The notes beneath the pieces are model-generated. The model saw nothing but the letters and a program-made list of their open reading frames with translations. It was not told the origin of the DNA and ran no database searches. Shown one piece after another: positions 1 through 64,000 of a stretch of DNA of 64,000 nt (position 1 is the first letter of the stretch; every line of letters begins with the position of its first letter). The position numbers were made by a program, and so were the translations under genes. Source of the DNA: Gemmatimonadota bacterium (GTDB lineage Bacteria > Gemmatimonadota > Gemmatimonadetes > Gemmatimonadales > Gemmatimonadaceae); contig JADKAQ010000046.1 of assembly GCA_016719105.1 (NCBI GenBank), forward strand, positions 518,272 through 582,271, in the 5' to 3' direction.

Positions 1-99
1 AGCCGTCTTTCCCCCGTGATTCTGGTGCGTGATGAAGCGCGCGTTGTACTGCTCGGCGTACGCCTCGTCGTAGAGCTGTTGGAGCGCTTCGGGCTTCAC
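1..99 (-). CDS. 5' end of a CDS running off the left edge (product unknown)
   Basis: Reverse strand reads GTG(97-99) then KPEALQQLYDEAYAEQYNARFITHQNHGGKT, open to position 1. Only 33 codons are visible, so no product call. Confidence 0.3.
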   Translation of the reverse strand, partial: MKPEALQQLYDEAYAEQYNARFITHQNHGGKTA

Positions 100-217
100 G
101 GCAATGGCTCTCTCGGTGCGGGTTCGCGTGAGCCGTCGAAGAGTGGCAAGAAGTAGACCGTCTCTCCGGATCTCCGGGTCCCCAGGTCCGCGGGTCTCCG
201 CAGACGCTCGACGCGTG

Positions 218-907
218 TCAGTCCCTTCGCACAGGTAGGGCGGTCGCCCTGAGGATCCGGTCGAGCCGAGGATACTCCTGATCCATGAAGGCGTTGCCGC
301 CGCGCTCCAGCGGCCCCTGTTTCCCCTGTCGCACCCCACCCCCCGACTCTTCGCCGTAGCCCGCGTAGAGCGAGTCGATCACCCCCATCCCCTCCACCAC
401 CGTCCCGAGGACGGTGAACGGCTCCGTGTCGTTCCGCGCGTTGTTCGCGAGGTTGATGTAGATCTGCGTGTTGCGCGTCGCCGGCCGGCCGGGCCCCTCG
501 TACGAGAAGGCGAAGGTCCCGCGCTCGTTCCGCGACCGCGGCGGATCGTCGGCCAGATAGCGTCCCTTCCAGACCGCGTTCACCGTCGGGTCGCCATGCA
601 GCCCGAACTGCGCGATGTAGCCGGCACGAACGCGATGGACGCGCGTGTCGTCGAAGTACCCGAGCCGGGTCAGATTGTAGAGTCGGTCGGCGCCGATGGG
701 GCCCCAGGCGCGATGGAGTTCGAGTACGAAGACGCCCTTGGTGGTCTCGAAACGCAGGTGCGAGCGCTCAGGAGCAGCGCGACGCCATTCCGCATGGGCC
801 GGATCGAGCACTATCGCCCGACGTTGAATCTGCGACAGTTCAGCGACACTACCACGGGAGATACAGGACAGCGCTGTCGCGGACACTGCAAGAACAGCGA
901 ATCGCAT
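218..907 (-). CDS. cyclophilin-type peptidyl-prolyl cis-trans isomerase, secreted
   Basis: Cyclophilin-like blocks VHRVRAGYIAQFG, GTFAFSYEGPGRPATRNTQIYINL and FTVLGTVVEGMGVIDSL. Start taken at ATG 905-907 (MRFAVLAVSATALSC signal); the ORF is open to 970. Confidence 0.85.
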   Translation of the reverse strand: MRFAVLAVSATALSCISRGSVAELSQIQRRAIVLDPAHAEWRRAAPERSHLRFETTKGVFVLELHRAWGPIGADRLYNLTRLGYFDDTRVHRVRAGYIAQFGLHGDPTVNAVWKGRYLADDPPRSRNERGTFAFSYEGPGRPATRNTQIYINLANNARNDTEPFTVLGTVVEGMGVIDSLYAGYGEESGGGVRQGKQGPLERGGNAFMDQEYPRLDRILRATALPVRRD

Positions 908-966
908 GCTGAGCGGTAGGCGACCGCGCCCGTGCCCATGGACCGAAGAGACGCAGGACATCGACA

Positions 967-2596: not shown

Positions 2597-4303
2597 TCAC
2601 TTGAACGCGGTCGAATCCCGCCAGACTTCGCGCCCCCCCAGGACGGTCAGCACGACGGGCGTCCGGGTGATCTGAAAGGGCGACACCCTGCGCAGGTCCG
2701 CGGAGAGCACGATCACGTCCGCGAGCTTCCCCACGGCGATCGTCCCCAGCTCCTGCTCGGCGTCGCTCGCCATCGCGCCACCCAGCGTGTAGGCCTTGAG
2801 CATCGTCTCGACGTCCACACGCTCCTCCGGAAAGAAGGGGGCGTCGGTCGAATCGTCCGGCGACTGGCGGGTCACCGCCACCCGGATCGCCTGCAGCGGA
2901 TCGAGCGACGACACGAACCAGTCGCTGCCGCCTGCCATGATCGCGCCCGTCCGGGCCATCGTCGCCAGCGGATACTGCCATCGCGCCCGCGTGGGACCGA
3001 TGCGCGGCTCGGTGAGCTCCTTCATGTACGTATCGCGAAACGCCCAGAGCGCCTGCCAGCTCGCCACCACGCCTAACGAAGCGAAGCGGCCGATATCCGT
3101 CGAATCGAAGAGCTGGATGTGCACGATCATGGGGCGCGGACCGCCCGACACGCGGCGCGACCCGTGGCGCTGCTCGATCGCGTCGAGGCTCGCCCGGATG
3201 GCGCGATCGCCGATGGCGTGCACGTGGATCTTGAAGCCCGCCGAATCGAGGGCGCGCGCGATCGCGTTGAAGCGCGCCGGCGGGAGGTTCAGGTCGCCGC
3301 GAAAGCCCGGACGATCCGTGTAGTCGGCGAGCAGCGCCGCCGTCCCCCCCTCGAGCACGCCGTCGGCGAAGATCTTGGCTGCCACCGGGCGCACCATCGG
3401 CCGCGCATACCGGTCGCGAAGGGCCGCCAGCCCTTGCACCTGCTCCGGGCCACTGTCCACGTTCACATGCAACGCGACGACCGTGCGCACCGTGAGGCGC
3501 CCGAGCGAATCGGCATCGGTGTAGGCGCGCAGGATCTCCTCCGTGGCGCTGGCCTCGTGCCAGCTCGTGATCCCCAGCTGGTTCGCGCGCCGCACCGCGC
3601 GCTCGAGCCCGACGCGCATTTCCTCGCGCGTGTGCGGCGGGATGTGCTGCTGGACCAGCTCCTGCGCCGACTCGCGCAGCGTTCCCACGGCGTTCCCCCG
3701 GGCGTCGCGCACGATCACCCCGTTCACGGGATCCCGCGTGTCGCGCGTGATTCCCGCGATGGCGAGCGCCCGCGAGTTCGCCCACCCGTTGTGCCCGTCC
3801 GCCGACGACAGGAAGGCCGGGCGACCGGGGACGAGGGAATCGAGCAAGGCCGCCGTCGGCGTCCCCCCCGCAAAGAGCGGGAGCGCGAAGCCGCCGCCAC
3901 GAATCCACGATGCGTTCGGGTCGCGCGCATTGCACTCGGCCACCACCTCACGCAGCCGTTCGATCGTGGCGATGTCGGCCAGGTTGCACTCACCGAGCTG
4001 CACGCCGGCGCTCACCGGGTGCACGTGCGTATCGACGAAGCCCGGCATCAGCAGCCGATTGCCCAGCGTGACGACGCGCGTGTTCGCCCCGATCAACGAA
4101 TCGACCCCGTTCTCGTCGCCAACGTAGACGATACGGTCCTTCCGGATGGCGACCGCGCGCGCTTCGGGCTGCAGTGAATCGCCCGTCCACACCGTCCCCC
4201 CGCGAAAGACAAGGTCGGCCGCGTGCTCGTTCGTCGACGAGCATGCCGCCGCAAGCAGCCCGATGACGACCAGGGCCGCCGACGAGGACGGGATTCTGTG
4301 CAT
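2597..4303 (-). CDS. amidohydrolase-family metal-dependent hydrolase (lipoprotein signal)
   Basis: 568 aa. Signal plus lipobox LLAAAC. Metal-ligand blocks FVDTHVHP, IHVHAIGD, HIQL and GSDW are typical of YtcJ-like TIM-barrel amidohydrolases. Confidence 0.85.
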   Translation of the reverse strand: MHRIPSSSAALVVIGLLAAACSSTNEHAADLVFRGGTVWTGDSLQPEARAVAIRKDRIVYVGDENGVDSLIGANTRVVTLGNRLLMPGFVDTHVHPVSAGVQLGECNLADIATIERLREVVAECNARDPNASWIRGGGFALPLFAGGTPTAALLDSLVPGRPAFLSSADGHNGWANSRALAIAGITRDTRDPVNGVIVRDARGNAVGTLRESAQELVQQHIPPHTREEMRVGLERAVRRANQLGITSWHEASATEEILRAYTDADSLGRLTVRTVVALHVNVDSGPEQVQGLAALRDRYARPMVRPVAAKIFADGVLEGGTAALLADYTDRPGFRGDLNLPPARFNAIARALDSAGFKIHVHAIGDRAIRASLDAIEQRHGSRRVSGGPRPMIVHIQLFDSTDIGRFASLGVVASWQALWAFRDTYMKELTEPRIGPTRARWQYPLATMARTGAIMAGGSDWFVSSLDPLQAIRVAVTRQSPDDSTDAPFFPEERVDVETMLKAYTLGGAMASDAEQELGTIAVGKLADVIVLSADLRRVSPFQITRTPVVLTVLGGREVWRDSTAFK

Positions 4304-4441: not shown

Positions 4442-5710
4442 CTACGGCGTCTTGACCGACAGGACCTGCAGCCCGGCACTCCCCTGCGCCACGAACATCG
4501 CGTTGTTGTCCGAGGCGATGTAGTTGGCCGAGCCGGGGAGGAGGAGCCGTCCGAGCGGCACCAGGGTCGGGCGCTGTCCCGAGCCGACGCCGCGGTGGTC
4601 GCTCCAAGTGACGGCAACGCCGGCTCCGCCGTCAGCCGCAAGAATGAAGTCCCCCGACAGGCTCACCGCGTTGGTGACAGCGTCGGCCGAGGAGACACCC
4701 GGGACGTTCGGGCGCGGGACGATGCCGCGCACGATGCCGCCGGAGAGGTCGACGACCTGCACGCCACCGTCGCCGGTGGCGACGAAGCCCCACGTGTCGG
4801 TGAGCGCCACCGACGACTTGGAGTCGGGGATCGTCCCCCCCTGCAGCGAGACGGTGCTGGTGAGCGCCCCTGTTGCCGCGTTGTAGAGACGCAGGCGCGC
4901 CGGCCCGCCCTGCGACACTGCGACGTACTTCCCCGACGCCCCGGTCACCGCGCGCGCGTCGGCGAAGACATCGCCCGAGACTCGCGCGAGCGTGTTGCGG
5001 TCGAGGATCGTGAGCCCTCCCACCCCCGGTCCCCCGTTCCCGGAGGTGACGTACACCCACTTGGACGAGACGTCGACCCCGGTCGCCACGTAGCTCGGGA
5101 GCTGCACGCGGGTGGTGGTCGTGCTGAGCCGCCCGCCCTGCAGGGCGATGCGCTCCAGCACCGCCCGTTCCTTGTACGTGGGGTCCTCGCTGGACGTGGC
5201 GAGGTAGATGTGCGAGTCGCTCACCGCGAGCGCGAGTACGTCGGACGTGCTGAGGATGGCCTGCGAGACCAGTCGCGGGCGGTCGGGGGTGGAGATGTCG
5301 AAGACCTCGACCGCCCCGCGCGCCACCTCGCCTAACGTCATGTAGGAGACGTAGGCGAACGAGCCGCGGACCACGACGTGCGAGGCGAGCAACGCGCTCC
5401 CGTTCACCCGCGGCGCACTCACCACCGCCGAGCGAAGGAAGGTCGTCGCGGAGGGCGGCCGTCCCACGCTGGCATTGAGGCTCGCGCGCACTCGCGCACT
5501 CGCGCCACTCGCGGAGGTGTCGGCCGTGAGTTGGACCGTGTCACCGGTGGTGTATTGCACGCGGTCGGCAAACTCGGGGGCGTCGTTCGAAACGGTCAGG
5601 CGCTCCTGGTCGGCATCGGGGGCGATCGGCATGTCGCTGGTGCTGCAGGCCGAGAGCGCGGCGAGCGACGCAAGGAGCAGGGTAGTCGGGACGAGTGCGC
5701 GAGCGGTCAT
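4442..5710 (-). CDS. secreted beta-propeller-like lipoprotein with LVIVD-like repeats
   Basis: Start at ATG 5708-5710 (MTARALVPTTLLLASLAALSAC lipobox). Recurrent A-Y-V-x-x-x-G-x-V-x-V-F/D-x-S-x-P-x-x-P-x-x-V-like repeats, e.g. FAYVSYMTLGEVARGAVEVFDISTPDRPRLV. Confidence 0.6.
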   Translation of the reverse strand: MTARALVPTTLLLASLAALSACSTSDMPIAPDADQERLTVSNDAPEFADRVQYTTGDTVQLTADTSASGASARVRASLNASVGRPPSATTFLRSAVVSAPRVNGSALLASHVVVRGSFAYVSYMTLGEVARGAVEVFDISTPDRPRLVSQAILSTSDVLALAVSDSHIYLATSSEDPTYKERAVLERIALQGGRLSTTTTRVQLPSYVATGVDVSSKWVYVTSGNGGPGVGGLTILDRNTLARVSGDVFADARAVTGASGKYVAVSQGGPARLRLYNAATGALTSTVSLQGGTIPDSKSSVALTDTWGFVATGDGGVQVVDLSGGIVRGIVPRPNVPGVSSADAVTNAVSLSGDFILAADGGAGVAVTWSDHRGVGSGQRPTLVPLGRLLLPGSANYIASDNNAMFVAQGSAGLQVLSVKTP

Positions 5711-6146
5711 CGGGGGACTCCGGGGACAACGGTCGGCGCGTCCGCCTCCATGCGGGCGACGCCGGCGCCGTGGGGAGCAACCCATGTGCCCCCCAGCGGG
5801 CGGATCCGCATCTGCCGCCCTGACAACGACTTGCCGCAATCGCTCGGCAACCTCTGCCGCCTCTCGTTCGCGCCGCCGCGGCGCAAAGTGCCGGGGGAGG
5901 CGCGCGCTGCGGCAGGAGCCGCGGCGCGCGGCCGGCGGGGACGGCCGCCTCGCGCCGGGAGCGCGGGCCGGTTCTCAGGCCCCATCGCGGGACGGCGCTC
6001 AGGCCCGTTCGCAGCTCCATCTGCGGGCCCGGTCGCAGGCCCGTGCGCGGGCGGTGGAGGACAGGGGCCCGACCGAACCGCGGGGGCGTGCTCGGCGCGT
6101 CGCGTTCGGAATTGTATACTAAATCCGAACCCCTACCCGATCTCCG

Positions 6147-7760
6147 ATGTCCCGCCTTGCACTCCCCCTCCGGCGCCTCACCGCCTCCCTCGCGGCCCCC
6201 GCACTCGGCTGCGCGGCACTCGCCTGTCTGGCGCTCGCGACGCCGCTCGCGTCGTCCGTCGCGCAGGGGACCAAGGGCCGAGCGGCCGCCGGTCCCGATT
6301 CGCGCGCCATCCTCCAGGAGCTCGACCGCTACATCCCCAAGGCGCTCGCGGAGTGGAACGGGGCGGGGGTGGCGGTGGGGATCGTGAAGGACGATTCGCT
6401 CATCTACGCCAAGGGGTTCGGCGTTCGGGCGGTGGGGAAGCCCGACGCCGTCGACGATCGCACCGTCTTCGCCATCGGTTCCAACTCGAAGTTCTTCACC
6501 GCCGTGGCCGCCGGAATGCTCGCCGATGACGGCAAGCTGTCGCTCGACGACAAGGTCACGAAGCACCTGCCGTGGTTCCAGCTGTACGATCCGTGGGTCA
6601 CGCGCGAGTTCACGCTGCGGGACGCGATGTCGCATCGCAGCGGGCTGGGGCGGCGCGGCGACGGGCTCTGGTACGGGACGCCGTATTCGCGCGACGAGAT
6701 CATCCGCCGCGTGCGCTACCTCGCCCCCAACACGTCGTTCCGCACGGAGTTCGGCTACCAGAACATCATGTTCCTCACGGCCGGGCAGGCGCTGGCCGCG
6801 GCGGCGGGCACGAGCTGGGACGACCTCATGCGCGACCGGATCTTCCAGCCGCTGGGAATGACGTCGTCCAACACCAGCGTGCGATCCCTGGCGGCCATGC
6901 CTAACGTCGCCACGCCGCACGACCTCACGGGGACGATGACGCGGCCGACCGCGATTCCCTACCTCGACATCGACAACGTCGCTCCGGCCGGCTCCATCAA
7001 CTCGAACGTGCAGGACATGGCGCGCTGGATGCGCTTCGTCCTTGCCGACGGGTCGTTCGGCGGCAAGCAGCTCCTCAAGCGGGAGACGCTGCTCGACATC
7101 ACGTCACCGCACACCATCGCCCAGCGCGTCGTCGCCGACACCGCGGTCCCCAGCACGCACTTCAACCTCTACGCCCTCGGCATCGGCGTGTCCGACCTCC
7201 ACGGGGTGAAGGTCCTGCGCCACACCGGCGGGATCGATGGTATGCTCTCCTACGTGGCGATGGTCCCGGAACGCAAGCTGGGCATCGTCGTGCTCACCAA
7301 CGTCACCGGGCGCAACGCCATGTATGCCGCGCTGGGGACGCGCATCCTCACGTCGTTCCTCGGCGGTCCCACCCGCGACAACAGCGCCCTGGCGCTGGCC
7401 GAGTTCACCAAGGCCGAGCAGGCGGCGGCCGAACGTTTTCGCACGCGCATGGCGCAGCGCCCGGCCAACACGAGTCCGTCGCGCGCGTTAGGCGACTATG
7501 CCGGCACGTTCCGCAGCGAGATGTACGGCGACCTGACGGTGACGCTGGAGAACGGGGTCCTGATGGTACGCTATCCGCGGGCGGTCGAGTTCAAGCTGTG
7601 GCACTTCGCGTACGACACCTTCCTCGGGACGAGCGCCACGGAGACGGCGCCGGGGCCCGACGCGGCGGCGGTGCGCTTCTCGCTCGACCCCATGGGGGTC
7701 GTGACCAAGGTCGACGTGCAGGAGATCGGGGAGTTCACGCGGGTGCGCGCCGCGCGCTGA
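6147..7760 (+). CDS. serine hydrolase of the beta-lactamase / penicillin-binding family
   Basis: 537 aa with signal peptide. S-x-x-K motif in IGSNSKFFTA and Y-x-N in FGYQNIMF. Confidence 0.85.
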   Translation: MSRLALPLRRLTASLAAPALGCAALACLALATPLASSVAQGTKGRAAAGPDSRAILQELDRYIPKALAEWNGAGVAVGIVKDDSLIYAKGFGVRAVGKPDAVDDRTVFAIGSNSKFFTAVAAGMLADDGKLSLDDKVTKHLPWFQLYDPWVTREFTLRDAMSHRSGLGRRGDGLWYGTPYSRDEIIRRVRYLAPNTSFRTEFGYQNIMFLTAGQALAAAAGTSWDDLMRDRIFQPLGMTSSNTSVRSLAAMPNVATPHDLTGTMTRPTAIPYLDIDNVAPAGSINSNVQDMARWMRFVLADGSFGGKQLLKRETLLDITSPHTIAQRVVADTAVPSTHFNLYALGIGVSDLHGVKVLRHTGGIDGMLSYVAMVPERKLGIVVLTNVTGRNAMYAALGTRILTSFLGGPTRDNSALALAEFTKAEQAAAERFRTRMAQRPANTSPSRALGDYAGTFRSEMYGDLTVTLENGVLMVRYPRAVEFKLWHFAYDTFLGTSATETAPGPDAAAVRFSLDPMGVVTKVDVQEIGEFTRVRAAR

Positions 7761-9685: not shown

Positions 9686-10144
9686 TCACGTGTCAGCCGC
9701 CACGGGGAGGCGGACGATGGTGAACCAGAAGCTCTTCACGCTTTCCACCACCTGCTGCAGCGCCGTGAGGTTCACCGGCTTGGTGACATAGCAGTTGGCG
9801 CCGGAGGCGTAACTGCGCACGATGTCGAGCTCCGCCTCCGATGAGGTGAGGACCACGACCGGGATGAGGCGCAGCTGCGGATCGCCCTTGATCTCCTGCA
9901 ACATCTCCAACCCCGAGCGGCGCGGGAGGTTGAGGTCGAGCAGGATGAGGTCGGGGCGCTGGGCCGACTCGTAGGCGCCGCGCCGGTTCAGGAAGTCGGA
10001 GGCGTGCACGCCATCGACGACGACCGACAGGTCGAGCAGCACATGGCTCTGGTCGAGCGTGTCGCGGATCAGCTCGACGTCGCCCGCGTTGTCCTCGACC
10101 AGCAGGATGCGGATCGGCCGCAGCGCGTTAGGCACTGCGGTCAT
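9686..10144 (-). CDS. single-domain response regulator (CheY/Rcp1-like)
   Basis: Start ATG 10142-10144. ILLVEDNAGDVELI...[13 protein letters not shown]...K(P). The start overlaps the upstream gene stop (10128) by 17 nt. Confidence 0.85.
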   Translation of the reverse strand: MTAVPNALRPIRILLVEDNAGDVELIRDTLDQSHVLLDLSVVVDGVHASDFLNRRGAYESAQRPDLILLDLNLPRRSGLEMLQEIKGDPQLRLIPVVVLTSSEAELDIVRSYASGANCYVTKPVNLTALQQVVESVKSFWFTIVRLPVAADT

Positions 10145-12248: not shown

Positions 12249-12301
12249 CGTGCCACCATCCCCTTGCGGCTCTGCGCTGCGTGCGGTCTGCACCCGGCGG
12301 C

Positions 12302-14632
<2,331 letters not shown>

Positions 14633-45001: not shown

Positions 45002-45044
45002 CCGACCGGGAACGGCCCCGCGTGGCCGCGCGCGCACCGCCGTG

Positions 45045-45320: not shown

Positions 45321-45406
45321 GGCCGGACTCGGTGCTCGGGCTGCTCGTGTCGGTCGCGCTCCTGGTGTACCTGCTGTACACGCTCCTGCGGCCGGAGAAG
45401 TTCTGA
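45317..45406 (+). CDS. kdpF: K+-transporting ATPase subunit F
   Basis: 29-aa hydrophobic peptide [29 protein letters not shown], ending 2 nt before the kdpA start. Confidence 0.8.
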
Positions 45407-45408
45407 CC

Positions 45409-47124: not shown

Positions 47125-47125
47125 C

Positions 47126-49234: not shown

Positions 49235-49238
49235 CCTC

Positions 49239-50938: not shown

Positions 50939-50951
50939 CGCACGGCCTCGC

Positions 50952-54731: not shown

Positions 54732-57233
54732 TCACATTCCGGGAGCCAGCCGCCGGAAGAACGAGTCGGGATGCCAGCGCGGCCTGCGATCGCGATCGGC
54801 GACCCGCTTCACCACGTCCAGGTAGTAGCGCGTGAATCCCTCGGCGGTCGCCTGGTCGACATGCTGCGTGACGTCGTCCTGCGGGAAGTGATAGCGCGTG
54901 GCACGGAACGCCTTCACTGCCTCGTGCTCCGGGGTATCGAGGGCGAAGCCCACCTTGAACGAGAGCGACGGGATTCCGCGCAGGATGAACGAGTACTGGT
55001 CGCTGCGGATGAAGCGATTCTCCTCGGGCTCGGGGTCGCTCACCACCGCAAGGCCCAACGCCTCGCCAGCTGCACGGGCGTCGGCCGCCAGGTCCGACTC
55101 CTCCAGCCCGTTCACCATGATCCTGGTGAGCGGGACGATGGGCATGAACATGTCGGTGTTGAGGTTGGCGACGATGCGCTCCGCCTTCACCGTGGGGTGA
55201 TTGGCCAGGTAGCGCGAGCCGAGCAGCCCCTTCTCCTCGGCGGTGACCGCCGCGAAGAGGACGGAGCGGCGGAGCTTGCTCCCGCCCTCTTTCAACCGAC
55301 GGGCCATTTCCATGAGGAGGGCGGTGCCGGAGGCGTTGTCCATCGCCCCGTTGTAGATCGAATCGCCGTTGACGGCGCGCCCAATCCCGACGTGGTCGAG
55401 GTGGGCCGTCAGCACGACGACTTCGTCCTTGAGCTGCGGGTCGGAGCCGGGGAAGAGTCCGAGCACGTTGTCGGAGGTGACGCGCCCGGTGACGAGCGCC
55501 ACGCGCGAGCGGATGCGCACCGGCAGGTTGAAGCGCGGGAGCTTCAGCCCGCTGTCGGCGCGCGCGGCGATGGCAGCGTACGGCTCGGCGGCGCCGTCGA
55601 AGAGCTTGGCGGCGCGGGCAGCGTTCCAGCCGAGGGCGAGGGAGTTGCCACGCTGAGCGTCGAGCGATGCGTCGTCGAGCGTCAGCTGCGGCGCAAGGCG
55701 ATTGGCGCTCGCGCGCGTGAAGGCCGCGTCGTTGGTGCGCGACCCGCCGAAGGTGATGACGCCAACCGCGCCGAGCTTCCGGAACGTCTCCCACGACTGG
55801 GCGCGCGAGTGCGAGATGACCGGGCCGGGGACCCCCTTGGGCATCTGCGTCATGTACACCACGACCTTCCCTTTCACGTCGAGCCCCGTGAGGTCGTCGA
55901 CACCGTACTCCGGGAGCTGCAACCCGTAGCCGGCAAAGACGAGCGGCGCCTCGACCGACGCGGCGAGCGGGGCGCGCAAGACGAAGGCAGCGTCCTGCCC
56001 CAGCGTGAGCGACTCTTCCTTCCCGTCGCGCAGCAGGGTGAGCGCGGAGCGCGACTCGTCGATCGTGCGCGAGAGGAATCGCACCGGCTGGAAGTAGCCG
56101 TTGGTTCCCGCCGGCCGGAGCCCCGCCCGGGCGAAGGCGTTGGCGACGTACTCGGCTGTCTGGCGATGCTCCTTCGACCCGGTCTGACGACCGGCCATGG
56201 AGTCGTGGCTCAGGCGCTCGACGTCGCGCCACCATCGTTCGCTGGTCTGGGCGCTGCCGGGCCGAGCGTTCGAGAGTCGGAGGACGGCGTCCCGGATGGC
56301 GGGCCAGGTGACCGATTGGGGCGACATGACCTCATGATGCCCGGCCTTGGGGACCACGATGATCTCCACGCTGTCGCCCTTGGCGCGCGCGGCGGCGCCC
56401 CAGAGGTCGAGGTTCTTGCGCGGCATGATCCGGTCGGCCTCGCCCGCGATCATGACCTGCGGGACGCCTAACGGGAGCCAGTTCGATGGGGAGGCGTCGC
56501 GCCAGCGGTCGGGCACCTCGGTAGGGGAGCCGCCGAGGAGCTTGGGGATGGTCCCCTCGCCGCACATGCCATCGCCATAGGTGTTGAAGTCGTACAGGTC
56601 ACCAGGGCCGGCCAGGGCGACGACGCCAGCGATGGGGAGCGGGTTGGCAACGCGCAGCGGGGAGCCGGCGCCGAGCTTCGGACGGGCCGCCAGCCACAAT
56701 GCCATCTGGCCGCCGGCAGAGTGGCCGATGGCGATCACGCGCGTGAGGTCGAGCGGGTAGCGCGCGGCAAGGCCGCGCAGCGCATCGGCGGCGCTGGCGA
56801 CGTCGAGGAAGGTCCCGGGCCATCCGCCGCCGGGGTTGTCGCGGCGTCGGTACTCGACGTTCCATGTCGCGACGCCGGCATCGCGAAGCGCGTCGGCGAT
56901 GGGGGCGGCGTTGTTGGCGGCGGCGTAGCCGTGCACCCAGCAGCCGCCATGGATGACGATGGCCACGGCGAAGGGACCCTTGCCGCTCGGCAGGCGCAGC
57001 TCGCCGAACTGCAGCGAGTCGGCGCCGTAGGCAACGCGGGCGTCAGCCGGCTTGCTGGGGAGGGCGTTGATGTCGCTCGGCCTCAGGTAGTTCTGTGCCC
57101 GCGCGGTAGCGGAAGGCACGATCGACAGGGCGATCGAGAGCGCCAGCAGACGGGACGACGCGAGGGCCGCGATCACCCCAGCGAAAGCCGGGGCCCGGTG
57201 GCTCTTGGTGAAGTCGGAAGGACGAGATGGCAT
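54732..57233 (-). CDS. fusion protein: N-terminal alpha/beta-hydrolase (esterase) plus C-terminal PA-domain M28 aminopeptidase
   Basis: Start ATG 57231-57233. Signal peptide; VIHGGCWV and IGHSAGG (esterase); then LTAHLDHVG, GAMDNASGTA and FAAVTAEEKGLLGS (M28 zinc ligands) in one 833-aa frame. Confidence 0.8.
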   Translation of the reverse strand: MPSRPSDFTKSHRAPAFAGVIAALASSRLLALSIALSIVPSATARAQNYLRPSDINALPSKPADARVAYGADSLQFGELRLPSGKGPFAVAIVIHGGCWVHGYAAANNAAPIADALRDAGVATWNVEYRRRDNPGGGWPGTFLDVASAADALRGLAARYPLDLTRVIAIGHSAGGQMALWLAARPKLGAGSPLRVANPLPIAGVVALAGPGDLYDFNTYGDGMCGEGTIPKLLGGSPTEVPDRWRDASPSNWLPLGVPQVMIAGEADRIMPRKNLDLWGAAARAKGDSVEIIVVPKAGHHEVMSPQSVTWPAIRDAVLRLSNARPGSAQTSERWWRDVERLSHDSMAGRQTGSKEHRQTAEYVANAFARAGLRPAGTNGYFQPVRFLSRTIDESRSALTLLRDGKEESLTLGQDAAFVLRAPLAASVEAPLVFAGYGLQLPEYGVDDLTGLDVKGKVVVYMTQMPKGVPGPVISHSRAQSWETFRKLGAVGVITFGGSRTNDAAFTRASANRLAPQLTLDDASLDAQRGNSLALGWNAARAAKLFDGAAEPYAAIAARADSGLKLPRFNLPVRIRSRVALVTGRVTSDNVLGLFPGSDPQLKDEVVVLTAHLDHVGIGRAVNGDSIYNGAMDNASGTALLMEMARRLKEGGSKLRRSVLFAAVTAEEKGLLGSRYLANHPTVKAERIVANLNTDMFMPIVPLTRIMVNGLEESDLAADARAAGEALGLAVVSDPEPEENRFIRSDQYSFILRGIPSLSFKVGFALDTPEHEAVKAFRATRYHFPQDDVTQHVDQATAEGFTRYYLDVVKRVADRDRRPRWHPDSFFRRLAPGM

Positions 57234-57481
57234 CGGCGCCCAAGGGAGGGGTGGCGTGCGCGGGAAGCGTTCGTGCGTACAGGACGCTATCGCGATTCGC
57301 TCGGCGCAGGAAGCCAAGGCGATGGTGGAATGGGCGGCCCCGGCCCGGTCTCGCGTCGTGCCGCGGTCTTCTCCGCTCCGCCAGGGTACCCGGGGTGCAC
57401 GCCGACCCACGACGTGCGAACGCCGCCGAAGTGCGCTATCGTCTGCGCAGCGTCCTTCATCCCACGCCCAGCCGCCAGCCC

Positions 57482-58939
57482 ATGCACCCGATTGCCCGGA
57501 CCACGATTGGCTCGCTCGCCGCCGCCGCGGCGCTCCTCTCCTCAACGGTTGCGGCGCAGCAGAAGGCGCCGATCTACACCCCGGGACAGCTCAATCCCAA
57601 CCAGCAGCTCGCGCGCGAGATCTACAAGGAACTGGTGGAGATCAACACCGGAGTGGAGACGGGAGACATAACGGCGGCGGCGCAGGCGATGGCGAAGCGC
57701 TTCCGAGCGGCCGGGATCCCCGAGGGCGACATCTTCGTGGGGGGGCCGCAGCCCAAGAAGCACAACCTGGTCGTGCGACTGCGCGGCAAGGGGGGGCCGA
57801 ATGCGGGGAAGCCGCTGCTCCTGCTGGCGCACATCGACGTGGTCGAGGCGCTCAAGGCCGACTGGTCGCCGGATCTCGATCCGTTCGTCTTCACCGAGCG
57901 CGACGGCTACTACTACGGACGCGGGACCGCCGACGACAAGGCGATGGCGTCGATCTTCGTGGCCAACGTCTTCCGGATGAAGCAGGAAGGCTACGTCCCG
58001 GACCGCGACATCATCATCGCCCTCACCGCCGATGAGGAGAGCGGGCCGTTCAACGGCGTGGATTGGCTGACGAAGAACCACCGCGAGCTGGTTGATGCCG
58101 CCGTGGTCATCAACGAAGGGGGAGGCGGGACGCTGCGCGAGGGCAAGCACCTCTTCAACACGGTGCAGGCGGCGGAGAAGATCACGACCAACTTCACGCT
58201 GCGGGCCACCAACCGCGGCGGGCATTCGTCGGTCCCGCGCGACGACAATGCCATCACGCAGCTCGCCGACGCCCTCGCCAAGGTGGGGCGCCATCGTTTT
58301 CCGGTGCAGCTGAGCGAGGTGACGCGCGCCTTCTTCTCGCAGACCGCCAACCTCGAGACGCCGGAGGTGGGGAAGGCGATGAAGGCGCTCGTGGCCAACC
58401 CGCAGGATGCCGCCGCCCTTGGCGTGCTGCAGAAGGACCCGCGCTACAACTCGATGCTGCGCACGAGCTGCGTGGCCACGCAGCTCAACGGCGGCCACGC
58501 GACCAATGCGCTCCCGCAGCTGGCGGAGGCCAACGTCAACTGCCGCATCTACCCCACCAGCAGCGCCGCCGAGGTGCGCGCGGAGCTGGAGCGCGTGATC
58601 GGCGACACCAACGTGAAGGTGATCATCAAGTCGCAGCGCCCCTCGACGCCGTCGACCGCGCTGGCGCGCGACGTGATGGGGCCCATCGAACGCATCACGA
58701 AGGAGATGTGGGGGAACATCCCCGTCATCCCGACCATGAGCACCGGGGCGACGGACTCGCGATTCTTCCGCGCGTTAGGCGTGCCGGCGTACGGCGTGTC
58801 GGGCTTGTTCAGCGACCCCACGGTCGACGCGCGGGCGCACGGGCGCGACGAGCGGATGGGGGTGCGGAGCTATTTCGAGGGACAGGAGTTCCTGTATCGG
58901 CTGACAAAGGCGCTGGCGTCGACGACATCGATTCAATAG
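57482..58939 (+). CDS. M20-family metallopeptidase, secreted
   Basis: Start ATG 57482. LLAHIDVVEA, GRGTADDKAM, ALTADEESG and HGRDERM are M20/M25/M40 metal-ligand blocks. Confidence 0.85.
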   Translation: MHPIARTTIGSLAAAAALLSSTVAAQQKAPIYTPGQLNPNQQLAREIYKELVEINTGVETGDITAAAQAMAKRFRAAGIPEGDIFVGGPQPKKHNLVVRLRGKGGPNAGKPLLLLAHIDVVEALKADWSPDLDPFVFTERDGYYYGRGTADDKAMASIFVANVFRMKQEGYVPDRDIIIALTADEESGPFNGVDWLTKNHRELVDAAVVINEGGGGTLREGKHLFNTVQAAEKITTNFTLRATNRGGHSSVPRDDNAITQLADALAKVGRHRFPVQLSEVTRAFFSQTANLETPEVGKAMKALVANPQDAAALGVLQKDPRYNSMLRTSCVATQLNGGHATNALPQLAEANVNCRIYPTSSAAEVRAELERVIGDTNVKVIIKSQRPSTPSTALARDVMGPIERITKEMWGNIPVIPTMSTGATDSRFFRALGVPAYGVSGLFSDPTVDARAHGRDERMGVRSYFEGQEFLYRLTKALASTTSIQ

Positions 58940-59110: not shown

Positions 59111-60289
59111 TCACTTCATCCGCCCAGCCTCGACCCAGGTCGTCGTTCCAACCCGGACCGTCGCATCGGTGAAGAAGTTCCACCGCACATACCCGCCGGT
59201 GACCTTGCCTCCAAGCTCGGAGTTGTCGCCTAACGACAATCGCACCACCCCGGCCCCGTAGCCGTAGTACGGGATCCACCGCTCGCCCGACGCCGGGATC
59301 GCGAGGAGCGGGTTGAACCCGAGGGCGAACTCGCGGAACGACCGCCCTGCCTCGCCCGCGGTGCGTAGTTCGCGCTCGACGCCCTCGCGCCCGCTGGTGG
59401 CCGTATACCCGGTCAGCTTGCCCCTGGCAAAGACCATCACCAGCCCCTTCACCGGCGTGTTGCCCCAGACGCCGTCGGGGAAGGCGATCTTCCCGTTCAC
59501 GCTCTCTTCGATCGGGGCCACACGAATCGCGCCGGCCGGCAGCTCGACCTCGCGATCGATGAGCGTCTTCCCGCGCGTGGCGCGCGCCGCCGAGGCGTCG
59601 CCGTCCTGCCGGGTGACGACGCGGTCGCCGATCCGGAAGGTGATGTCGGTCCCGGCCGGGGTTGTCACGCGCACGGGCGACGCGCGCATCGCCGACTCGA
59701 AGTCGCGCTGCGCCTTGGCCAGGGCCGCGTAGTCGGTGCGCTCGAGGACGCGCTGGTAGAGCGCGGCGTGCGCGCTCGACGTCGTCATCAGGTCGCCCGC
59801 CAGCGAGTAGGCTCCGGCCCAGTGAAAGTGCACGGTCCGCACGCCACGCGTCGTCGGCGCGCGGAGGATGCGTTGCAGCGCGTCATACGGCGGGTCGGTG
59901 GGAGTGGCACCTGGGAGCATGATCCCCAGGTCGATGTCCCCGAGGTAGCGCACCAGCTGCTCGGCGCTCTTGCCCGCGGCCCCGCGCGTGAAGTCGGTGG
60001 CCCACGACGCCGGAGGGGTGCCACGCACGGCGATGACGCCGAGGTCGATCGCGCCGGCAGCCGCAATCGCGGCGCGCAGCGGGGCGACCACACCATCGGC
60101 CTGTCCGGCTTCGCCGACCAGCAGGACGCGCTCTCCCTTGGTGAGTTGCATCTGCTTCGCGACGGCGCGCGCGACGACGCCCCAGTCGGAGGGAGAGGCA
60201 GGCCTGGCCGGGGGAGTCACCGACTGGGCGAACGCCGCCACGGGGAGGACGAGCGCGAGGGCAAGCGGGAGGGTGCCGGCGATGGGCAT
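59111..60289 (-). CDS. secreted aminopeptidase-like protein (M29/AmpS-like, tentative)
   Basis: 392 aa with signal peptide MPIAGTLPLALALVLPVAAFA. Blocks VHFHW, IDREVELPAG and EFALGFNP recall thermophilic-metalloprotease-type aminopeptidases. The family call is tentative. Confidence 0.5.
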   Translation of the reverse strand: MPIAGTLPLALALVLPVAAFAQSVTPPARPASPSDWGVVARAVAKQMQLTKGERVLLVGEAGQADGVVAPLRAAIAAAGAIDLGVIAVRGTPPASWATDFTRGAAGKSAEQLVRYLGDIDLGIMLPGATPTDPPYDALQRILRAPTTRGVRTVHFHWAGAYSLAGDLMTTSSAHAALYQRVLERTDYAALAKAQRDFESAMRASPVRVTTPAGTDITFRIGDRVVTRQDGDASAARATRGKTLIDREVELPAGAIRVAPIEESVNGKIAFPDGVWGNTPVKGLVMVFARGKLTGYTATSGREGVERELRTAGEAGRSFREFALGFNPLLAIPASGERWIPYYGYGAGVVRLSLGDNSELGGKVTGGYVRWNFFTDATVRVGTTTWVEAGRMK

Positions 60290-60586
60290 TGAGCCTCGAC
60301 AGGATGGGATGACGAGCGCGGGTTGAGGCGTCGGGGGCGATGGTCGGAGATGCCGCGCCGGCGTTGCGGGCTGAACATACGTCCCTGGGAAAGCGGTCGG
60401 CGATATCGCACCGGTGTGCCGTGCGCGCCCCTATCGCTTCGCGCGTTCGCCCCGAGATTGCGGGCGATTCCCACGGTGCGCTACCCTCTCGAGGTGCAAG
60501 CCGGGCCGCGCGTGGTCAGTCGTCGTTCCGCCGTTCCGTCGTTCCATCGCCGCAGCGTCGCTGCGTCCCGTCCCCTCCGCCAGGCC

Positions 60587-62071
60587 ATGCGCGACTCCCT
60601 CGGGCTCGCCCACCTCATTCGCACCCGCCAGCTCTCGGTCGAGGAAGCGGTCGACGCGGCCATCGCTCGCATCGAGCAGCTGAACCCGCAGCTCAACGCG
60701 GTCATTCACCCGATGTTCGAGCAGGCGCGCCAGATGGCTCGCCGGCCGCTCGCCGATCCCGACGCGCCATTTGCCGGCGTCCCGTTCCTCATCAAGGACC
60801 TGCTCACCGCCTATGCCGACGAGCCGATGGCCAGCGGCTCGACGCTCTATGCGGGATGGCGCGCGGAGGCGGACTCGGAGCTGATGGCGCGCTACCGGAA
60901 GTCCGGAGTGATCGTGCTGGGCAAGACCAACACACCGGAGTTCGGGCTCACCCCCTTCACTGAGCCCAAGGCCAAGGGGATCAGCCGCAACCCGTGGAAC
61001 GTCGAGCGCACGACCGGTGGCTCGAGCGGCGGGTCGGCCGCGGCGGTTGCCAGCGGGATGGTGACGATGGCCGGTGGTGGCGACGGGGGTGGGTCGATTC
61101 GCATTCCCGCGAGCTGCTGCGGAGTCTTCGGCTTCAAGGCCACGCGCGGGCGCGTCCCGACCGGCCCCGGCGATGGCGAGATCTGGGCGGGGGCCGTGAC
61201 CGAAGGGGTGGTCACGCGCTCCGTCCGCGACTCGGCGGCGATGCTCGATGCCATCGACGGCGAGGACGTGGGAGCGCCGTACGCGGCTCCGCCCAAGGCG
61301 CGAGCGTTCCTGGACGAGGTGTCGACCGAGCCGGGTCGCCTGCGCATCGCCTTCACCGACGCCCCGATGCTCGGCCACGCCATCCACGCCGACTGCAAGG
61401 GGGCGGTGCGCGATGCGGCCGCGCTGCTCGAGTCGTTAGGCCATCACGTGGAGGAGGCCGCGCCGGTCATCGACCGCGAGCGGTTCAACGAGGCCTTCAT
61501 CACCATCGTCTGTGGCGAGGTGGTCGCCGATCTCCGCGACGCCGCGGCCCGGCTCCGCCGCGAGGCGCGGCGCGACGACGTCGAGGTCGCGACGTGGGGG
61601 CTGGCCATGCTGGGAGGCTCGATCACCGCCGGCGACTACGCCAGCGCGCAGCGCTACCTGCAGCGCGTGGGGCGCACGATGGGGGCGTTCTTCCAGCGCC
61701 ACGATCTCCTCCTCACGCCGACGCTGGGGATGCCACCGGTCCCGCACGGCACGTTGCAGCCCAAGCCGGGGGAGGAGATGATGCTCAAGGTGTTCGGCGC
61801 GCTGCACGCGGGGGGACTGATGAAGAAGCTGGGCGCGGTCACGCAGGTGGCGGCGACCGTCTTCGACTTCATCCCGTATCCGCCGCTGTTCAACGTCACC
61901 GGGCAGCCGGCGATGTCGGTGCCGCTCTGGTGGAACCGCGAGGGGCTCCCCATCGGGGTGCAGCTGGCGGGGCGCTTCGGCGACGACGCGACGCTCTTTC
62001 GCGTCGCGGGGCAGCTGGAGCGGGCGCGCCCCTGGCACGAGCGCTGGCCCGCCACGTCGGCGCGCCCCTGA
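60587..62071 (+). CDS. amidase (amidase-signature family)
   Basis: Start ATG 60587. [15 protein letters not shown] and the signature [14 protein letters not shown] with the catalytic Ser-cisSer-Lys context. Confidence 0.9.
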
Positions 62072-62742
62072 GTTCCAGCCGGGAGCGATCGCCCCACGAC
62101 ACGGGCGATCCCCTGCCGCCTAACAGGTTCGGCAAGGGACCGTCCGTGGTCTCGCGATGCGTGTGGTGCGTGCGTGGTGCGTGCGTGGTGCGTCCCGTCG
62201 GCCTCGCCTCATCGTCGCACCGGTCACCGCGGCCCCCACGGCTGATGATGCCCGTGGCACGGTGGAAGGGTACGCCGTCGGCCCAGAAGCTGAGGTGCAA
62301 CGGGGGGTGCAGCGTCAACATTGCAGCAGGCGAGTCGCACGCGTGGCGTGTCCTCACATCGAACGCGACCTGCCGCAACAGGCGCCCGGTCCCGCCCGGC
62401 ACGCCACCTGGCCGTGCCCCTCGGTCGGCAGGGAGCTCAGCGCCACGAGGCTTGCCGCCGCGAGACACCCTCGCCGAAAACGTCGGTGGTTCATGGTCCC
62501 TCCCGCGGTGTATGGCCGGGGTCGCCTAACGCGGTCGACGCACGGCCGGGAACGGAGGGATGTTAGGGGCGCGGCGCGGCCGCGTCGGTGCAACGCCGCA
62601 CGCAGAATGTGCGTGCTACGTCGACGCGCATCTGTGAGCTGCCGTGCATAACGCGCCGCACGTGCGTCGGTACGGCTGACGTCGCATCGAGATCGTGCGC
62701 GTCGTACTCCCCCTTGGGGGGCACGTCACCCCATGCCGTCAG

Positions 62743-62781
62743 CCGCCCACCGCCCGCCGCCCGCCGCCCGCCCGCCGCCCG
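62743..62781 (-). repeat. CCGCCCG heptamer microsatellite (G-tract run on the reverse strand)
   Basis: CCGCCCA CCGCCCG CCGCCCG CCGCCCG CCCG CCGCCCG, ending at the stop codon (62782-62784) of the reverse-strand gene. On the sense strand this gives six GGG tracts with 1-4 nt loops. Confidence 0.8.
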
Positions 62782-64000
62782 CTACGGGTTCAGCCAATAC
62801 GCCAGCTTCAGCAGCAAGGTGTTGTCGGGGTGCGCCCGGAAGAGGTCGCGATAGTCACGCGCGAATTCGAAGCCGGGGCGGTTCACCCGGTCGTTGACGC
62901 GCCCCTGCTGCCAGACGAGGAAGAGCGTCGACCCAGGGCGATACTCCCAGCGCACGACCGCATTCGAGTTGAACTGCTTGTAGCTGAAGCCGTCGGGCGA
63001 GCGACGCCCGCCGTACGGACGATAGCGGTCCACGTAGCGCGCGGCGCGCGGGTCGGCGAGCTCGCGCCAGTCGTCGAAGTCGCCGCTGCTCACGAACGGC
63101 TGGGCATACAGCTGCAACGACAGGGTCGGCGACGCGGTCCAGTTCACGCGTCCCGTCACGGAGAGCGTCGTCTGCTCGAGGTGCGCAAAGGTGAAGTGCG
63201 TCGTGTCGCTCACGCTCGAGCCGAAATTCCCGATCCACTGCTGGTCGTCGTTGCGGTGGATGTACTGCCCGTCGACCCCCATGGAAAAGCGCGAGGCGAT
63301 GCGCAGGTCGGCGCCGCCAATGAGCGCGTACCCGTACGACCGCCGGTCGTCACCGAAGCCGGCGGCCAGCGTGACCCGTGGGACGAGCACGAGGCGCGGG
63401 TCGCCACTCACCACAAAGGCAAAGTCGTGCTTGGGACCCTGCCGTACCGCGGGCCCGCCACGTGCACAGGCCACGCAGTGCGTCTGGAACAGGTCATTGC
63501 CGGTGTAGCTGAACGTCGTGAGCCAGCTGTTCGGCAACTCCCACGTGGCCTGCCCCACGACGCGCCCCCCACTCGGCAAGCCACCCGTGGTCCAGTGGTT
63601 CTCGGCGCCGAAGTTGGCGAACATGCGGCGATAGAAGCGTCCCGGACGCAGCGCCTGCCACACGAGATCGTTGCGGATGGAGGCGTCGTTCACCGTGGGG
63701 ACGAACCCCAGGTCGTTCAACTCCAGCCCCGCTGAGGCACGGCGCACGTAGGTGTTCCACCGCACGGCACCGCCGATCTTGCTCAGCGACACCGCGGCGA
63801 CGTTGCCGCCTAACGTGGTCCGTGTGCTGTCGAACGATTCCTCATGGTCCGGGCGCTGGTAGAAGTGCACGCTGTTGAGCTGCGTGCGGGCGATGGCCTC
63901 GCGCGATCCCGACACCTGGTTGATCCCGGTGTAGGCCATGACCTCCCACCGGTCCCGGGCGAAGCGATGGAAGCCCTGCAGCACGCCGGTGTACGCCGCG
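62782..64000 (-). CDS. C-terminal part of a large outer-membrane beta-barrel-like protein (DUF5916-like, tentative), runs off the right edge
   Basis: The frame is open to position 64000. Alternating strand pattern, aromatic-rich C-terminus ...LLLKLAYWLNP. The family call is from memory only. Confidence 0.6.
   Translation of the reverse strand, partial: AAYTGVLQGFHRFARDRWEVMAYTGINQVSGSREAIARTQLNSVHFYQRPDHEESFDSTRTTLGGNVAAVSLSKIGGAVRWNTYVRRASAGLELNDLGFVPTVNDASIRNDLVWQALRPGRFYRRMFANFGAENHWTTGGLPSGGRVVGQATWELPNSWLTTFSYTGNDLFQTHCVACARGGPAVRQGPKHDFAFVVSGDPRLVLVPRVTLAAGFGDDRRSYGYALIGGADLRIASRFSMGVDGQYIHRNDDQQWIGNFGSSVSDTTHFTFAHLEQTTLSVTGRVNWTASPTLSLQLYAQPFVSSGDFDDWRELADPRAARYVDRYRPYGGRRSPDGFSYKQFNSNAVVRWEYRPGSTLFLVWQQGRVNDRVNRPGFEFARDYRDLFRAHPDNTLLLKLAYWLNP

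Follow-up and report, generated by a model that had tools for sequence, protein, structure and literature searches.

The 64,000-nucleotide stretch of the Gemmatimonadaceae assembly GCA_016719105.1 analysed here (contig JADKAQ010000046.1, positions 518,272 to 582,271, forward strand; hereafter the window) raises the question of why a single octamer, CGTTAGGC (reverse complement, GCCTAACG), occurs in it so often, within genes and between them. An exact search found 27 copies, 16 on the forward strand and 11 on the reverse strand, corresponding to 0.42 per kb. This count, and every start position given in an earlier note on this DNA, were reproduced, except that 63808, and not 63818, is the start of the last reverse copy; the five one-off variants that had been listed (14894, 15031, 28597, 47072 and 20981) were also found in place. 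Our favoured reading is that the octamer is a clade-specific tag, read in double-stranded DNA, that pervades the genomes of a single Gemmatimonadaceae sub-clade. That this tag serves the recognition of self-DNA in the manner of the DNA uptake sequences (DUS) of Neisseriaceae and the uptake signal sequences (USS) of Pasteurellaceae, and is kept by drive or selection, is a narrower proposal, which we put forward tentatively, by statistical analogy, at somewhat less than an even chance.

Abundance and definition of the octamer

Dinucleotide shuffles of the window gave an expectation of 0.86 copies, with a maximum of 4 in 100 shuffles, and Markov models of orders 0 to 3 predicted 2.4, 0.96, 0.57 and 1.22 copies, respectively. 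The enrichment was ca. 11-fold on base composition alone, in line with the ten-fold excess that had been claimed, and 22- to 47-fold under better nulls. Plasmid 1 of the cultured strain Gemmatirosa kalamazoonensis KBS708 carried 772 copies in its first 1.1 Mb (0.70 per kb), when 14 to 38 were expected at Markov orders 1 to 3; across the window and this plasmid, the enrichment over these orders was about 20- to 53-fold. Taking this bacterium together with its relatives, among them the cultured soil species, the excess is about 30-fold. CGTTAGGC ranked first among all octamers of the window at orders 2 and 3. At orders 4, 5 and 6, the observed-to-expected ratio in the window fell to 2.2, 1.3 and 1.1. 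Since the sub-words are nearly exclusive to the motif (38 GTTAGG and 32 CGTTAGG for 27 full copies) and barely exist outside it, a maximal-order model is blind to such a word, and we rejected these low ratios as a refutation of the enrichment.

Whether the excess could follow from the encoded proteins was evaluated by a synonymous-codon shuffle that kept the protein sequences and the global codon usage. It left 0.5 ± 0.7 coding copies as compared to the 19 observed. Together with the usage of the codon TTA described below, this ruled out a codon or dipeptide (Leu-Gly) preference. Because the enrichment survived this shuffle and was seen in both orientations and in non-coding DNA, selection appears to act at the DNA level, as had been proposed; these observations support the view that the word is kept by a force on the DNA sequence itself and not on proteins or RNA. 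The earlier note had named three outcomes that would speak against such selection, and what was found was a word that is not confined to the window, an excess that does not arise from Leu-Gly codon pairs, and a low high-order ratio that is a sub-word artefact.

Apart from CGTTAGGT, of which there were 4 copies, one-mismatch variants were at background level in the window, where the word is thus sharply defined. The base directly 3' of the octamer was G in 20 of the 27 copies and a purine (R) in 25, and the following base was A or T (W) in 20; both G and W had been counted as 19. Of the extended consensus CGTTAGGCGW suggested on that basis, only the purine was general: R, with T rare, followed the octamer in the window and in all relatives, whereas W was seen in the window and some relatives, not in Gemmatirosa. 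The extended form is therefore CGTTAGGCR. On plasmid 1, the next base was G in 358 copies, A in 261, C in 129 and T in 24 (R in 80%, T in 3%), and the other flank positions were uninformative. The variants enriched on this plasmid were transitions at positions 1, 5, 7 and 8 (TGTTAGGC, 76 copies, the most enriched at 28-fold; CGTTAGAC, 35; CGTTGGGC, 151), while positions 2, 3, 4 and 6 were strict. A dispersed repeat, of the repetitive extragenic palindrome or miniature inverted-repeat type, was dismissed, as it had been in the earlier note: the flanks in the window were unique and carried almost no information except at the base directly 3' of the octamer, and less than 5% of the copies on plasmid 1 lay in repeated elements (10-mer flank shared).

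The window is 99% identical to two metagenome-assembled genomes (MAGs), GCA_016714295.1 (L001) and GCA_016715665.1 (L002), whose JADJ-series accessions we take to denote long-read activated-sludge assemblies. Proteins encoded in the window are listed under Gemmatimonadetes or Gemmatimonadaceae at NCBI. Because of these presumed long-read MAGs and of a pair of genes for an EcoRII-N-domain protein and a C5 methylase in the window, a nanopore miscall of a methylated Dcm-like site (CGCCAGGC read as CGTTAGGC) was suspected. It was ruled out, since MEGAHIT contigs built for this species from Illumina reads alone (L003 and L004) had the word at identical positions, and it also occurred in the finished isolate genome of Gemmatirosa. 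Besides, L001 and L002 differed from the window at 39,300-59,800 by small indels, with kdpA and kdpB uncalled in L001 and a histidine kinase split in L002, which is typical of residual long-read indel errors.

When reading frames of the window were assigned by GC content at third codon positions (GC3), 16 copies were read in sense as xCG-TTA-GGC, 3 in antisense as CCT-AAC, 5 provided stop codons (3 sense TAG, 2 antisense TAA) and 3 were intergenic. The Leu-Gly copies had been put at 17; the Pro-Asn and stop-codon placements (TAG at 12302, 22056 and 26105; TAA at 10128 and 29532) were as described, and the proposed Val-Arg or Leu-Thr frames were not used by any copy in a credible gene. Among the 1,296 Leu codons of the window, only CTA is used less often than TTA (20 times), and the motif holds 15 of these TTA codons, which bears out the remark that an otherwise rare codon is used. 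The motif wrote 31% of the [S/P/T/A]-Leu-Gly and a third of the Pro-Asn-[VADEG] tripeptides. Sense copies outnumbered antisense copies by 19 to 5, and the orientation flipped along with that of the gene. The sense bias and the 16:11 split thus arise because only certain frames tolerate the word, with no replication-related polarity.

The same preferences were observed on plasmid 1, where 226 copies were read as Leu-Gly, 124 as Pro-Asn and 20 in each of the other two frames (sense to antisense, 265:163). Across the window and Gemmatirosa, the motif accounted for 26-31% of [SPTA]-L-G tripeptides, 33-44% of P-N-[VADEG] tripeptides and 75-77% of TTA codons; a quarter to a half of the permissive sites are occupied. 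On plasmid 1, 33 of the 65 TAA stop codons (51%) and 27 of the 142 TAG stop codons (19%) lay inside the motif. The density was 0.57 per kb in coding DNA and about twice that, 1.10 per kb, in the remainder, with a sharp peak in both orientations from the stop codon to +50 nt; near and after gene ends, the GCCTAAC orientation was ahead (72 vs 49).

Distribution of the word and evolution of its sites

The word was abundant in at least seven related lineages at 0.2 to 0.7 copies per kb and was the top octamer in nearly all positive loci, so that the comparison with related genomes proposed in the earlier note places it across a sub-clade. Gemmatirosa has the word not only on plasmid 1 but also on plasmid 2, whose first 50 kb contain 20 copies. 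The other positive loci, identified by their orthologues of window genes or by taxon, were as follows.

L089: peptidase orthologue 85% identical; 7 copies in 12.5 kb
L090: peptidase orthologue 76% identical; GC 72%; 4 copies in 21 kb
L093: peptidase orthologue 70% identical; GC 62.5%; 9 copies in 19 kb
L095: Gemmatimonadaceae MAG; 13 copies in 22 kb
L203: KdpB 88% identical; 6 copies in 22 kb
L204: KdpB 83% identical; 7 copies in 22 kb

Five further Gemmatimonadota loci (L009 and L198-L201; KdpB 74-78% identical), belonging to a Gemmatimonas sp. MAG, two Gemmatimonadales MAGs, a Gemmatimonadota MAG and the untyped contig L201, had only 0 to 2 copies per 17-22 kb, and the untyped locus L096 had none. 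Unrelated controls were drawn from a KdpB scan of genome contigs and an M28 peptidase profile scan of metagenomes, mostly from distant taxa; among the matches listed, 2.2 Mb of such loci contained 19 copies, with none in the 488 kb of GC above 62%. The difference between positive and negative loci indicates that the word marks one sub-clade of Gemmatimonadaceae. In the short loci of the motif-negative relatives, no sequence dialects were detected. Candidate dialect words GAGTACGT (L096), GATGTAGTC (L201) and TAGCGCAC (window) turned out to be the common codon triplets E-Y-V, D-Y-I and V-R-Y, and the candidates of L009 were local tandem repeats.

The 27 copies of the window, with their state in related genomes, and one informative one-off variant are given below.

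3071-3078, reverse: sense TCG-TTA-GGC (Ser-Leu-Gly) in an amidohydrolase gene (2597-4303, reverse)
5330-5337, reverse: sense ACG-TTA-GGC (Thr-Leu-Gly) in an open reading frame (ORF) at 4442-5839 (reverse)
6899-6906, reverse: antisense CCT-AAC (Pro-Asn) in a beta-lactamase-family gene (6147-7760, forward)
7486-7493, forward: sense Ala-Leu-Gly in the same beta-lactamase-family gene (6147-7760, forward)
10126-10133, forward: antisense; TAA (10128-10130, reverse strand) is the stop of a GGDEF/EAL gene (10128-12686, reverse)
12300-12307, reverse: sense; TAG is the stop of a PAS histidine-kinase gene (12302-14878, reverse)
18087-18094, forward: intergenic, 12 nt past the stop of the ORF at 17557-18075 (forward)
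20145-20152, forward: intergenic, flanked by convergent genes; CCTAACC at 20163-20169 is an imperfect inverted partner
22053-22060, forward: sense; TAG is the stop of the ORF at 21288-22058 (forward)
23089-23096, reverse: antisense Pro-Asn in a GFO/IDH/MocA oxidoreductase gene (22871-23914, forward); perfect in L090
23295-23302, forward: sense Ala-Leu-Gly in the same oxidoreductase gene (22871-23914, forward); perfect in L090
26102-26109, forward: sense; TAG is the stop of the ORF at 24080-26107 (forward), low-GC island
29530-29537, forward: antisense; TAA is the stop of a C5 DNA-methylase gene (29532-30401, reverse), low-GC island
35977-35984, reverse: sense Ala-Leu-Gly in a Transposase_mut (IS256-family) ORF (35020-36579, reverse)
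40446-40453, forward: sense Thr-Leu-Gly in the ORF at 39845-40756 (forward); perfect in L090
41446-41453, reverse: antisense Pro-Asn in a PhoX-like gene (40862-42460, forward); L002 has GCCGAACG, a within-species polymorphism
41826-41833, forward: sense Ala-Leu-Gly in the same PhoX-like gene (40862-42460, forward); kept in L001 and L002 despite differing flanking synonymous sites
44238-44245, forward: sense Ala-Leu-Gly in a histidine-kinase gene (43337-45001, forward)
46496-46503, forward: sense Pro-Leu-Gly in kdpA; L004 carries CGTTGGGC instead, a synonymous one-off
48060-48067, forward: sense Thr-Leu-Gly in the invariant KdpB phosphorylation motif
51418-51425, forward: sense Thr-Leu-Gly in a KdpD-sensor gene (50883-52142, forward); perfect in L089
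56466-56473, reverse: sense Pro-Leu-Gly in a hydrolase/M28 peptidase gene (54732-57233, reverse); perfect in L089, L090 and L093 (local nucleotide identity 68-87%)
58773-58780, forward: sense Ala-Leu-Gly in an M20 peptidase gene (57227-58939, forward); perfect in L093, one-off CGTTAGGG in L090
59228-59235, reverse: sense Ser-Leu-Gly in the ORF at 59111-60289 (reverse); perfect in L093, one-off CGTTAGGT in L090
61434-61441, forward: sense Ser-Leu-Gly in an amidase gene (60323-62071, forward); perfect in L093
62524-62531, reverse: probably intergenic (the sole overlapping ORF lacks a coding GC3 signal); GTTAGGG at 62562-62568 is an imperfect inverted partner
63808-63815, reverse: sense Thr-Leu-Gly in the ORF at 62782-63984 (reverse)
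47072-47079, forward: one-off CGTTAGGT; the conspecific Illumina contig L003 has perfect CGTTAGGC, i.e. a within-species gain or loss

Three of these copies are intergenic, a placement that the earlier note had mentioned; the two inverted pairs described there exist only in imperfect form (CGTTAGGC...CCTAACC at 20145-20169 and GCCTAACG...GTTAGGG at 62524-62568).

Sites of the window that could be aligned with relatives (68-92% nucleotide identity) were perfect in 10 of 12 cases and one-off in the other two. Motif sites were perfect in both genomes of a pair in 13 of 31 cases, as compared to 15.7% of all 8-mer windows (P = 4e-4), and this conservation at orthologous positions adds to the case for selection on the DNA. 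Lineage-specific copies faced Leu-Gly written as CTG/CTC-GGN in the other genomes; copies are therefore gained by several synonymous changes against GC and codon bias. Three gain or loss polymorphisms were seen within the species (41446 vs L002, 46496 vs L004 and 47072 vs L003). The invariant P-type ATPase motif of KdpB is written ACG TTA GGC in the species of the window and in none of the 82 KdpB genes examined from other taxa; in L203 and L204, too, kdpB contains the motif, at about the corresponding position.

The copies noted earlier in the low-GC island and in the IS256-family ORF were both present. The island (24,000-34,300; GC 58-64% vs 68-71%) contains two genes that end in the motif, and its 2 copies in 8 kb represent no significant difference in density. 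It encodes an EcoRII-N-domain protein (28088-28975, reverse), the C5 cytosine methylase (29532-30401, reverse), an ERCC4-domain nuclease (31950-33029, reverse) and an AAA_14/DUF4143 ATPase (33026-34276, reverse), in addition to large ORFs without a Pfam match (24080-26107 and 26097-26852), and is probably a restriction or defence island. The IS256-family ORF (35,020-36,579, reverse) matches profile positions 15-274 of 379 only and is overlapped by other high-GC3 frames; it is probably a truncated or frameshifted insertion sequence (IS) remnant.

Strand balance, spacing and the integron of Gemmatirosa

The orientation of the word relative to the replichores, a check proposed earlier, was examined on plasmid 1 (NZ_CP007129, 1.1 Mb). 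The strands were balanced, with 400 forward and 372 reverse copies. With replichores assigned from a weak GC skew, the two halves showed 150:121 and 250:251 (P = 0.15), and the sense fraction did not differ between genes on the leading and on the lagging strand (P = 0.49); the largest strand skew in any 50-kb bin was 21:11. A 52.6 kb direct duplication (1-52,567 and 53,060-105,626; L094, L097 and L098; at least 90% identity), which is a genuine tandem duplication or else an artefact of assembly, inflates the motif count of this replicon by about 30. A self-comparison of the plasmid showed only this duplication and duplicated cassettes; IS elements of at least 700 bp that occur in several copies were absent. 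The copies were spaced more evenly than expected by chance: the coefficient of variation of the gaps was 0.85 on plasmid 1 (P < 5e-4; Kolmogorov-Smirnov P = 3e-6), and that of the window was 0.68 (P = 0.02). Depending on the bin, about one third to one half of the expected gaps of 30-500 bp were missing, and gaps above 3 kb were also rarer than expected. Tandem arrays built of the motif were also seen on plasmid 1, namely (GCGGCGTTAGGC)n with a 12-bp period and 6-7 units, and a 15-bp unit repeated three times (1,005,342-1,005,430 and 735,994-736,030).

An excess of the motif at 800-850 kb of plasmid 1 led to the finding of an integron. At least 63 attC elements of ca. 97 nt, in a single orientation and spaced by 0.35-1.5 kb, had ends reading GCCTAACG...CGTTAGGC, and the closing 7-mer of every element was reverse-complementary to the opening 7-mer of its successor; this R'/R'' complementarity between successive elements is the signature of integron cassettes. 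The exact R' box was carried by 25 of 65 attC-like elements, the rest being one-off. An integron integrase gene (856,827-857,786, reverse) scored 423 bits on TIGR02249 (cut-off 265); there was no intI upstream of the first attC, the gene lying at the opposite end of the array. The sedentary integron, which is complete, spans about 813,500-857,800 (L112 and L113), with a few more attC-like ends at ca. 789-798 kb and 881-882 kb. Other over-represented words on plasmid 1 were ATTCGTTA/TAACGAAT (68 copies vs 1-2 expected), AATCGTTG, GAATCGTT and GGACTGAA; the ATTCGTTA/TAACGAAT group derives from the conserved attC interior (CAACGATTCGTTAGGC), and GGACTGAA/TTCAGTCC had 120 copies.

An attC site is an imperfect R''-L''...L'-R' palindrome of 60-140 nt that adopts a hairpin fold and stands in an array beside intI. 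The core sites (R-boxes) of attC and attI, at which IntI binds and cuts, follow the consensus GTTRRRY/RYYYAAC. GTTAGGC/GCCTAAC is a perfect instance of it and the commonest R-box of the Gemmatirosa array, so that the genome-wide word is the R-box of the clade's own integron. This identity had been missed in the earlier note, as had the sub-clade sharing and the origin of the sense bias in frame tolerance. No paper on integrons in Gemmatimonadetes was found in a literature search. Cassette DNA itself was poor in the word: 35 kb of it contained 6 copies when 24 were expected (P = 1e-5), i.e. 0.17 per kb as compared to 0.68 per kb elsewhere. The motif density rose with local GC, though the word itself is AT-rich. 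Recently acquired DNA is thus poor in the word.

Candidate functions of the word

Strand symmetry, occupancy, density past genes, clade specificity, conservation at orthologous positions and scarcity in new DNA together make up the statistical signature of DUS and USS (PMC2817400, PMC3630211, 10.1101/2025.10.24.684340). If the word is such a tag, a DNA-binding component of the uptake or recombination machinery would favour fragments bearing it, and word-bearing alleles would be re-imported and recombined more often. Copies would then accumulate wherever coding tolerates them, as Leu-Gly, antisense Pro-Asn or a stop codon and most densely in the first ca. 50 nt past genes, and would be shielded from decay once present. 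A second copy near an existing one would add little, which would account for the even spacing, and newly arrived DNA would not yet be tagged. Even spacing points to a benefit per fragment and argues against a purely mutational or repair process. The reader of the word would accordingly be an uptake or recombination protein, and these bacteria would be naturally transformable. A dprA homologue was present in the motif-positive locus L204, which is weak evidence because dprA is widespread.

The DUS of Neisseriaceae (ATGCCGTCTGAA family) and the USS of Pasteurellaceae (AAGTGCGGT core) are, like the motif, short exact words present at ca. 1 per 1-2 kb on both strands. They also share with it a distribution at the level of a family clade, the use of least-cost frames, the non-coding density past genes, conserved sites and scarcity in new DNA, and the coding-frame bias reported for DNA uptake enhancing sequences (DUES; bioRxiv 10.1101/2025.10.24.684340) is matched here. 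As of late 2025, DUES had been described only in Neisseriaceae and Pasteurellaceae (10.1101/2025.10.24.684340). The motif differs in that it belongs to Gemmatimonadota and not Proteobacteria, has another sequence with 8-9 informative bases, is identical to the attC R-box and almost never stands in inverted pairs or intrinsic terminators; competence, preferential uptake and a receptor such as a ComP-type minor pilin would be predicted for it by analogy.

Several points weigh against an uptake function. Such a function presumes natural competence in Gemmatimonadaceae and comes with no candidate receptor. About half of DUES copies, and more than 90% of those in inverted repeats, lie in terminators, a habit that the motif does not share: an inverted partner within 60 nt accompanied only 2 of 27 copies in the window and 6 of 719 Gemmatirosa copies outside the integron, and no canonical intrinsic terminator overlapped a copy in the window at 10-30 kb. 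We did not file the word as a DUES because this habit is missing and because competence, preferential uptake and a receptor are so far only predicted. In addition, the word has only 8-9 bp, as compared to the 10-12 bp of DUS and the 9-bp core plus AT tracts of USS, and its identity with the attC R-box is unpredicted by an uptake model. Weak selection for any sequence-specific binding protein would likewise yield conserved, evenly spaced sites that are scarce in new DNA.

The identity with the attC R-box is a coincidence that the present analysis cannot explain, and it raises the question of whether uptake or self-recognition is linked to cassette traffic. A bolder version of the uptake reading, in which the tag would be a third independent DNA-uptake-sequence system, the first outside Proteobacteria, with uptake coupled to cassette exchange, is speculative and, in our judgement, considerably less likely than its negation. 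If it holds, each attC would bear two tag copies, and cassettes of the shared pool would therefore be favoured in uptake, entering as single strands on which IntI can act.

The main rival to the uptake tag is a site for a nucleoid or chromosome-structuring protein, comparable to the cyanobacterial octamer HIP1 (GCGATCGC), with regular sites under weak selection and no uptake. We regard this as doubtful, though it fits most of the same facts. Even spacing with few very long gaps, conservation at orthologous positions and the equivalence of both strands would follow from it. HIP1 is likewise a clade-wide octamer with non-random spacing, is enriched 15- to 300-fold, a range that includes the 20- to 50-fold of the present word, and has sites conserved within and between ORFs, hence under selection, for which a nucleoid role has been argued (PMC5861425). 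The under-dispersion measured here is short-range, as distinct from a periodicity of 10-90 kb. HIP1 is a palindrome bound by orphan methyltransferases (PMC4390886), whereas the asymmetric CGTTAGGC could be linked to no methyltransferase. Moreover, no known nucleoid protein has thousands of exact, non-palindromic 8-bp sites, and the filling of a quarter to a half of the permissive contexts, together with the pile-up at stop codons, resembles as many copies as are tolerated rather than one per domain.

A Chi-like signal, at which a RecBCD/AddAB-type enzyme would recognise and spare the cell's own DNA, with both orientations covering two-ended breaks, appears improbable. Characterised Chi sites are skewed to the leading strand (ca. 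75% in E. coli), whereas the word showed no replichore effect and its orientation in the window followed the gene strand. This lack of polarity and the size of the enrichment disfavour Chi: a 20- to 50-fold excess is ca. 10 times higher than that of Chi and runs against codon usage rather than with it, and there is no Chi precedent for the use of TTA or the pile-up at stop codons. In favour of such a role, depletion in recently acquired DNA and an even spacing that places a site near any break would be expected, and the word is, like Chi (e.g. GCTGGTGG of E. coli), an asymmetric, over-represented and clade-specific 8-mer (PMC8022716).

It is very unlikely that the word is a site for a tyrosine recombinase of the integron-integrase (IntI) family, the genomic copies being half-sites of IntI or a paralogue, for example for the landing or capture of cassettes. 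The integrase gene and the attC array of plasmid 1, their ends and R'/R'' complementarity, and an exact 7-mer match that we estimate to arise by chance at ca. 1e-4 speak for it, as does the prevalence of the GCCTAAC orientation at and after gene ends, as after a cassette ORF, with TAA often serving as the stop. However, the window copies are isolated half-sites in ordinary genes: none of the 27 has an attC interior or the L boxes and hairpin partner needed by IntI, and no attC-like element, cassette or nearby intI was found in the window. Copies lie mostly within conserved housekeeping genes at orthologous positions, where insertion would be lethal and avoidance would be expected. The attC R' boxes tolerate variants (GTTAGAC, GTTAGCC etc.), whereas the genomic word is sharp, and no known recombinase spreads a half-site by point substitution.

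Equally hard to credit is a by-product of biased repair or methylation, in which a methyltransferase, a nicking enzyme or a system like very short patch (VSP) repair converts near-cognates into the word, which itself would have no function. VSP repair shifts oligonucleotide frequencies in E. coli, the one-off variants of plasmid 1 were mostly transitions, and the window encodes a C5 methylase with an EcoRII-N-like endonuclease. Such a process acts on one position, not eight, with known effects below 2-fold rather than 20- to 50-fold, and independent action predicts Poisson or clustered spacing, not under-dispersion. The methylase of the window lies in the low-GC island and is likely recent cargo; in addition, TGTTAGGC, the variant to be removed if position 1 were the methylated C, was the most enriched one-off. 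FtsK-orienting polar sequences (KOPS; GGGNAGGG), which are also asymmetric, over-represented, lineage-specific 8-mers and which the earlier note had already ranked behind an uptake signal or a protein-binding or methylation site, show a strong polarity (>80-90%) from origin to dif; they are excluded by the lack of polarity on the 1.1 Mb replicon.

To our knowledge, sequence-specific self-DNA tags occur in only two proteobacterial families, HIP1 is the only comparable word elsewhere, its function unknown after three decades, and no such tag is known in Gemmatimonadota, a little-studied phylum of soil and wastewater. A literature search found no paper giving this word this role, in line with the earlier note, which knew of no described motif of this sequence. 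The tag is directly testable, as a cultured strain whose genome is closed, G. kalamazoonensis KBS708, carries it, and tagged donor DNA may offer a practical route to the transformation of Gemmatimonadetes. Close relatives without the tag form a comparative system that should help in finding the reader protein through phylogenetic profiling, and the tag could be used as a taxonomic and binning marker for the clade in metagenomes.

The kdp locus of the window (42,622-52,142), in which several of the copies lie, comprises a response regulator, a histidine kinase, kdpF/A/B/C, a BBP2 (OmpL-like) porin and a separate KdpD-sensor/Usp gene. The porin within the kdp operon was conserved in all Gemmatimonadota loci examined.

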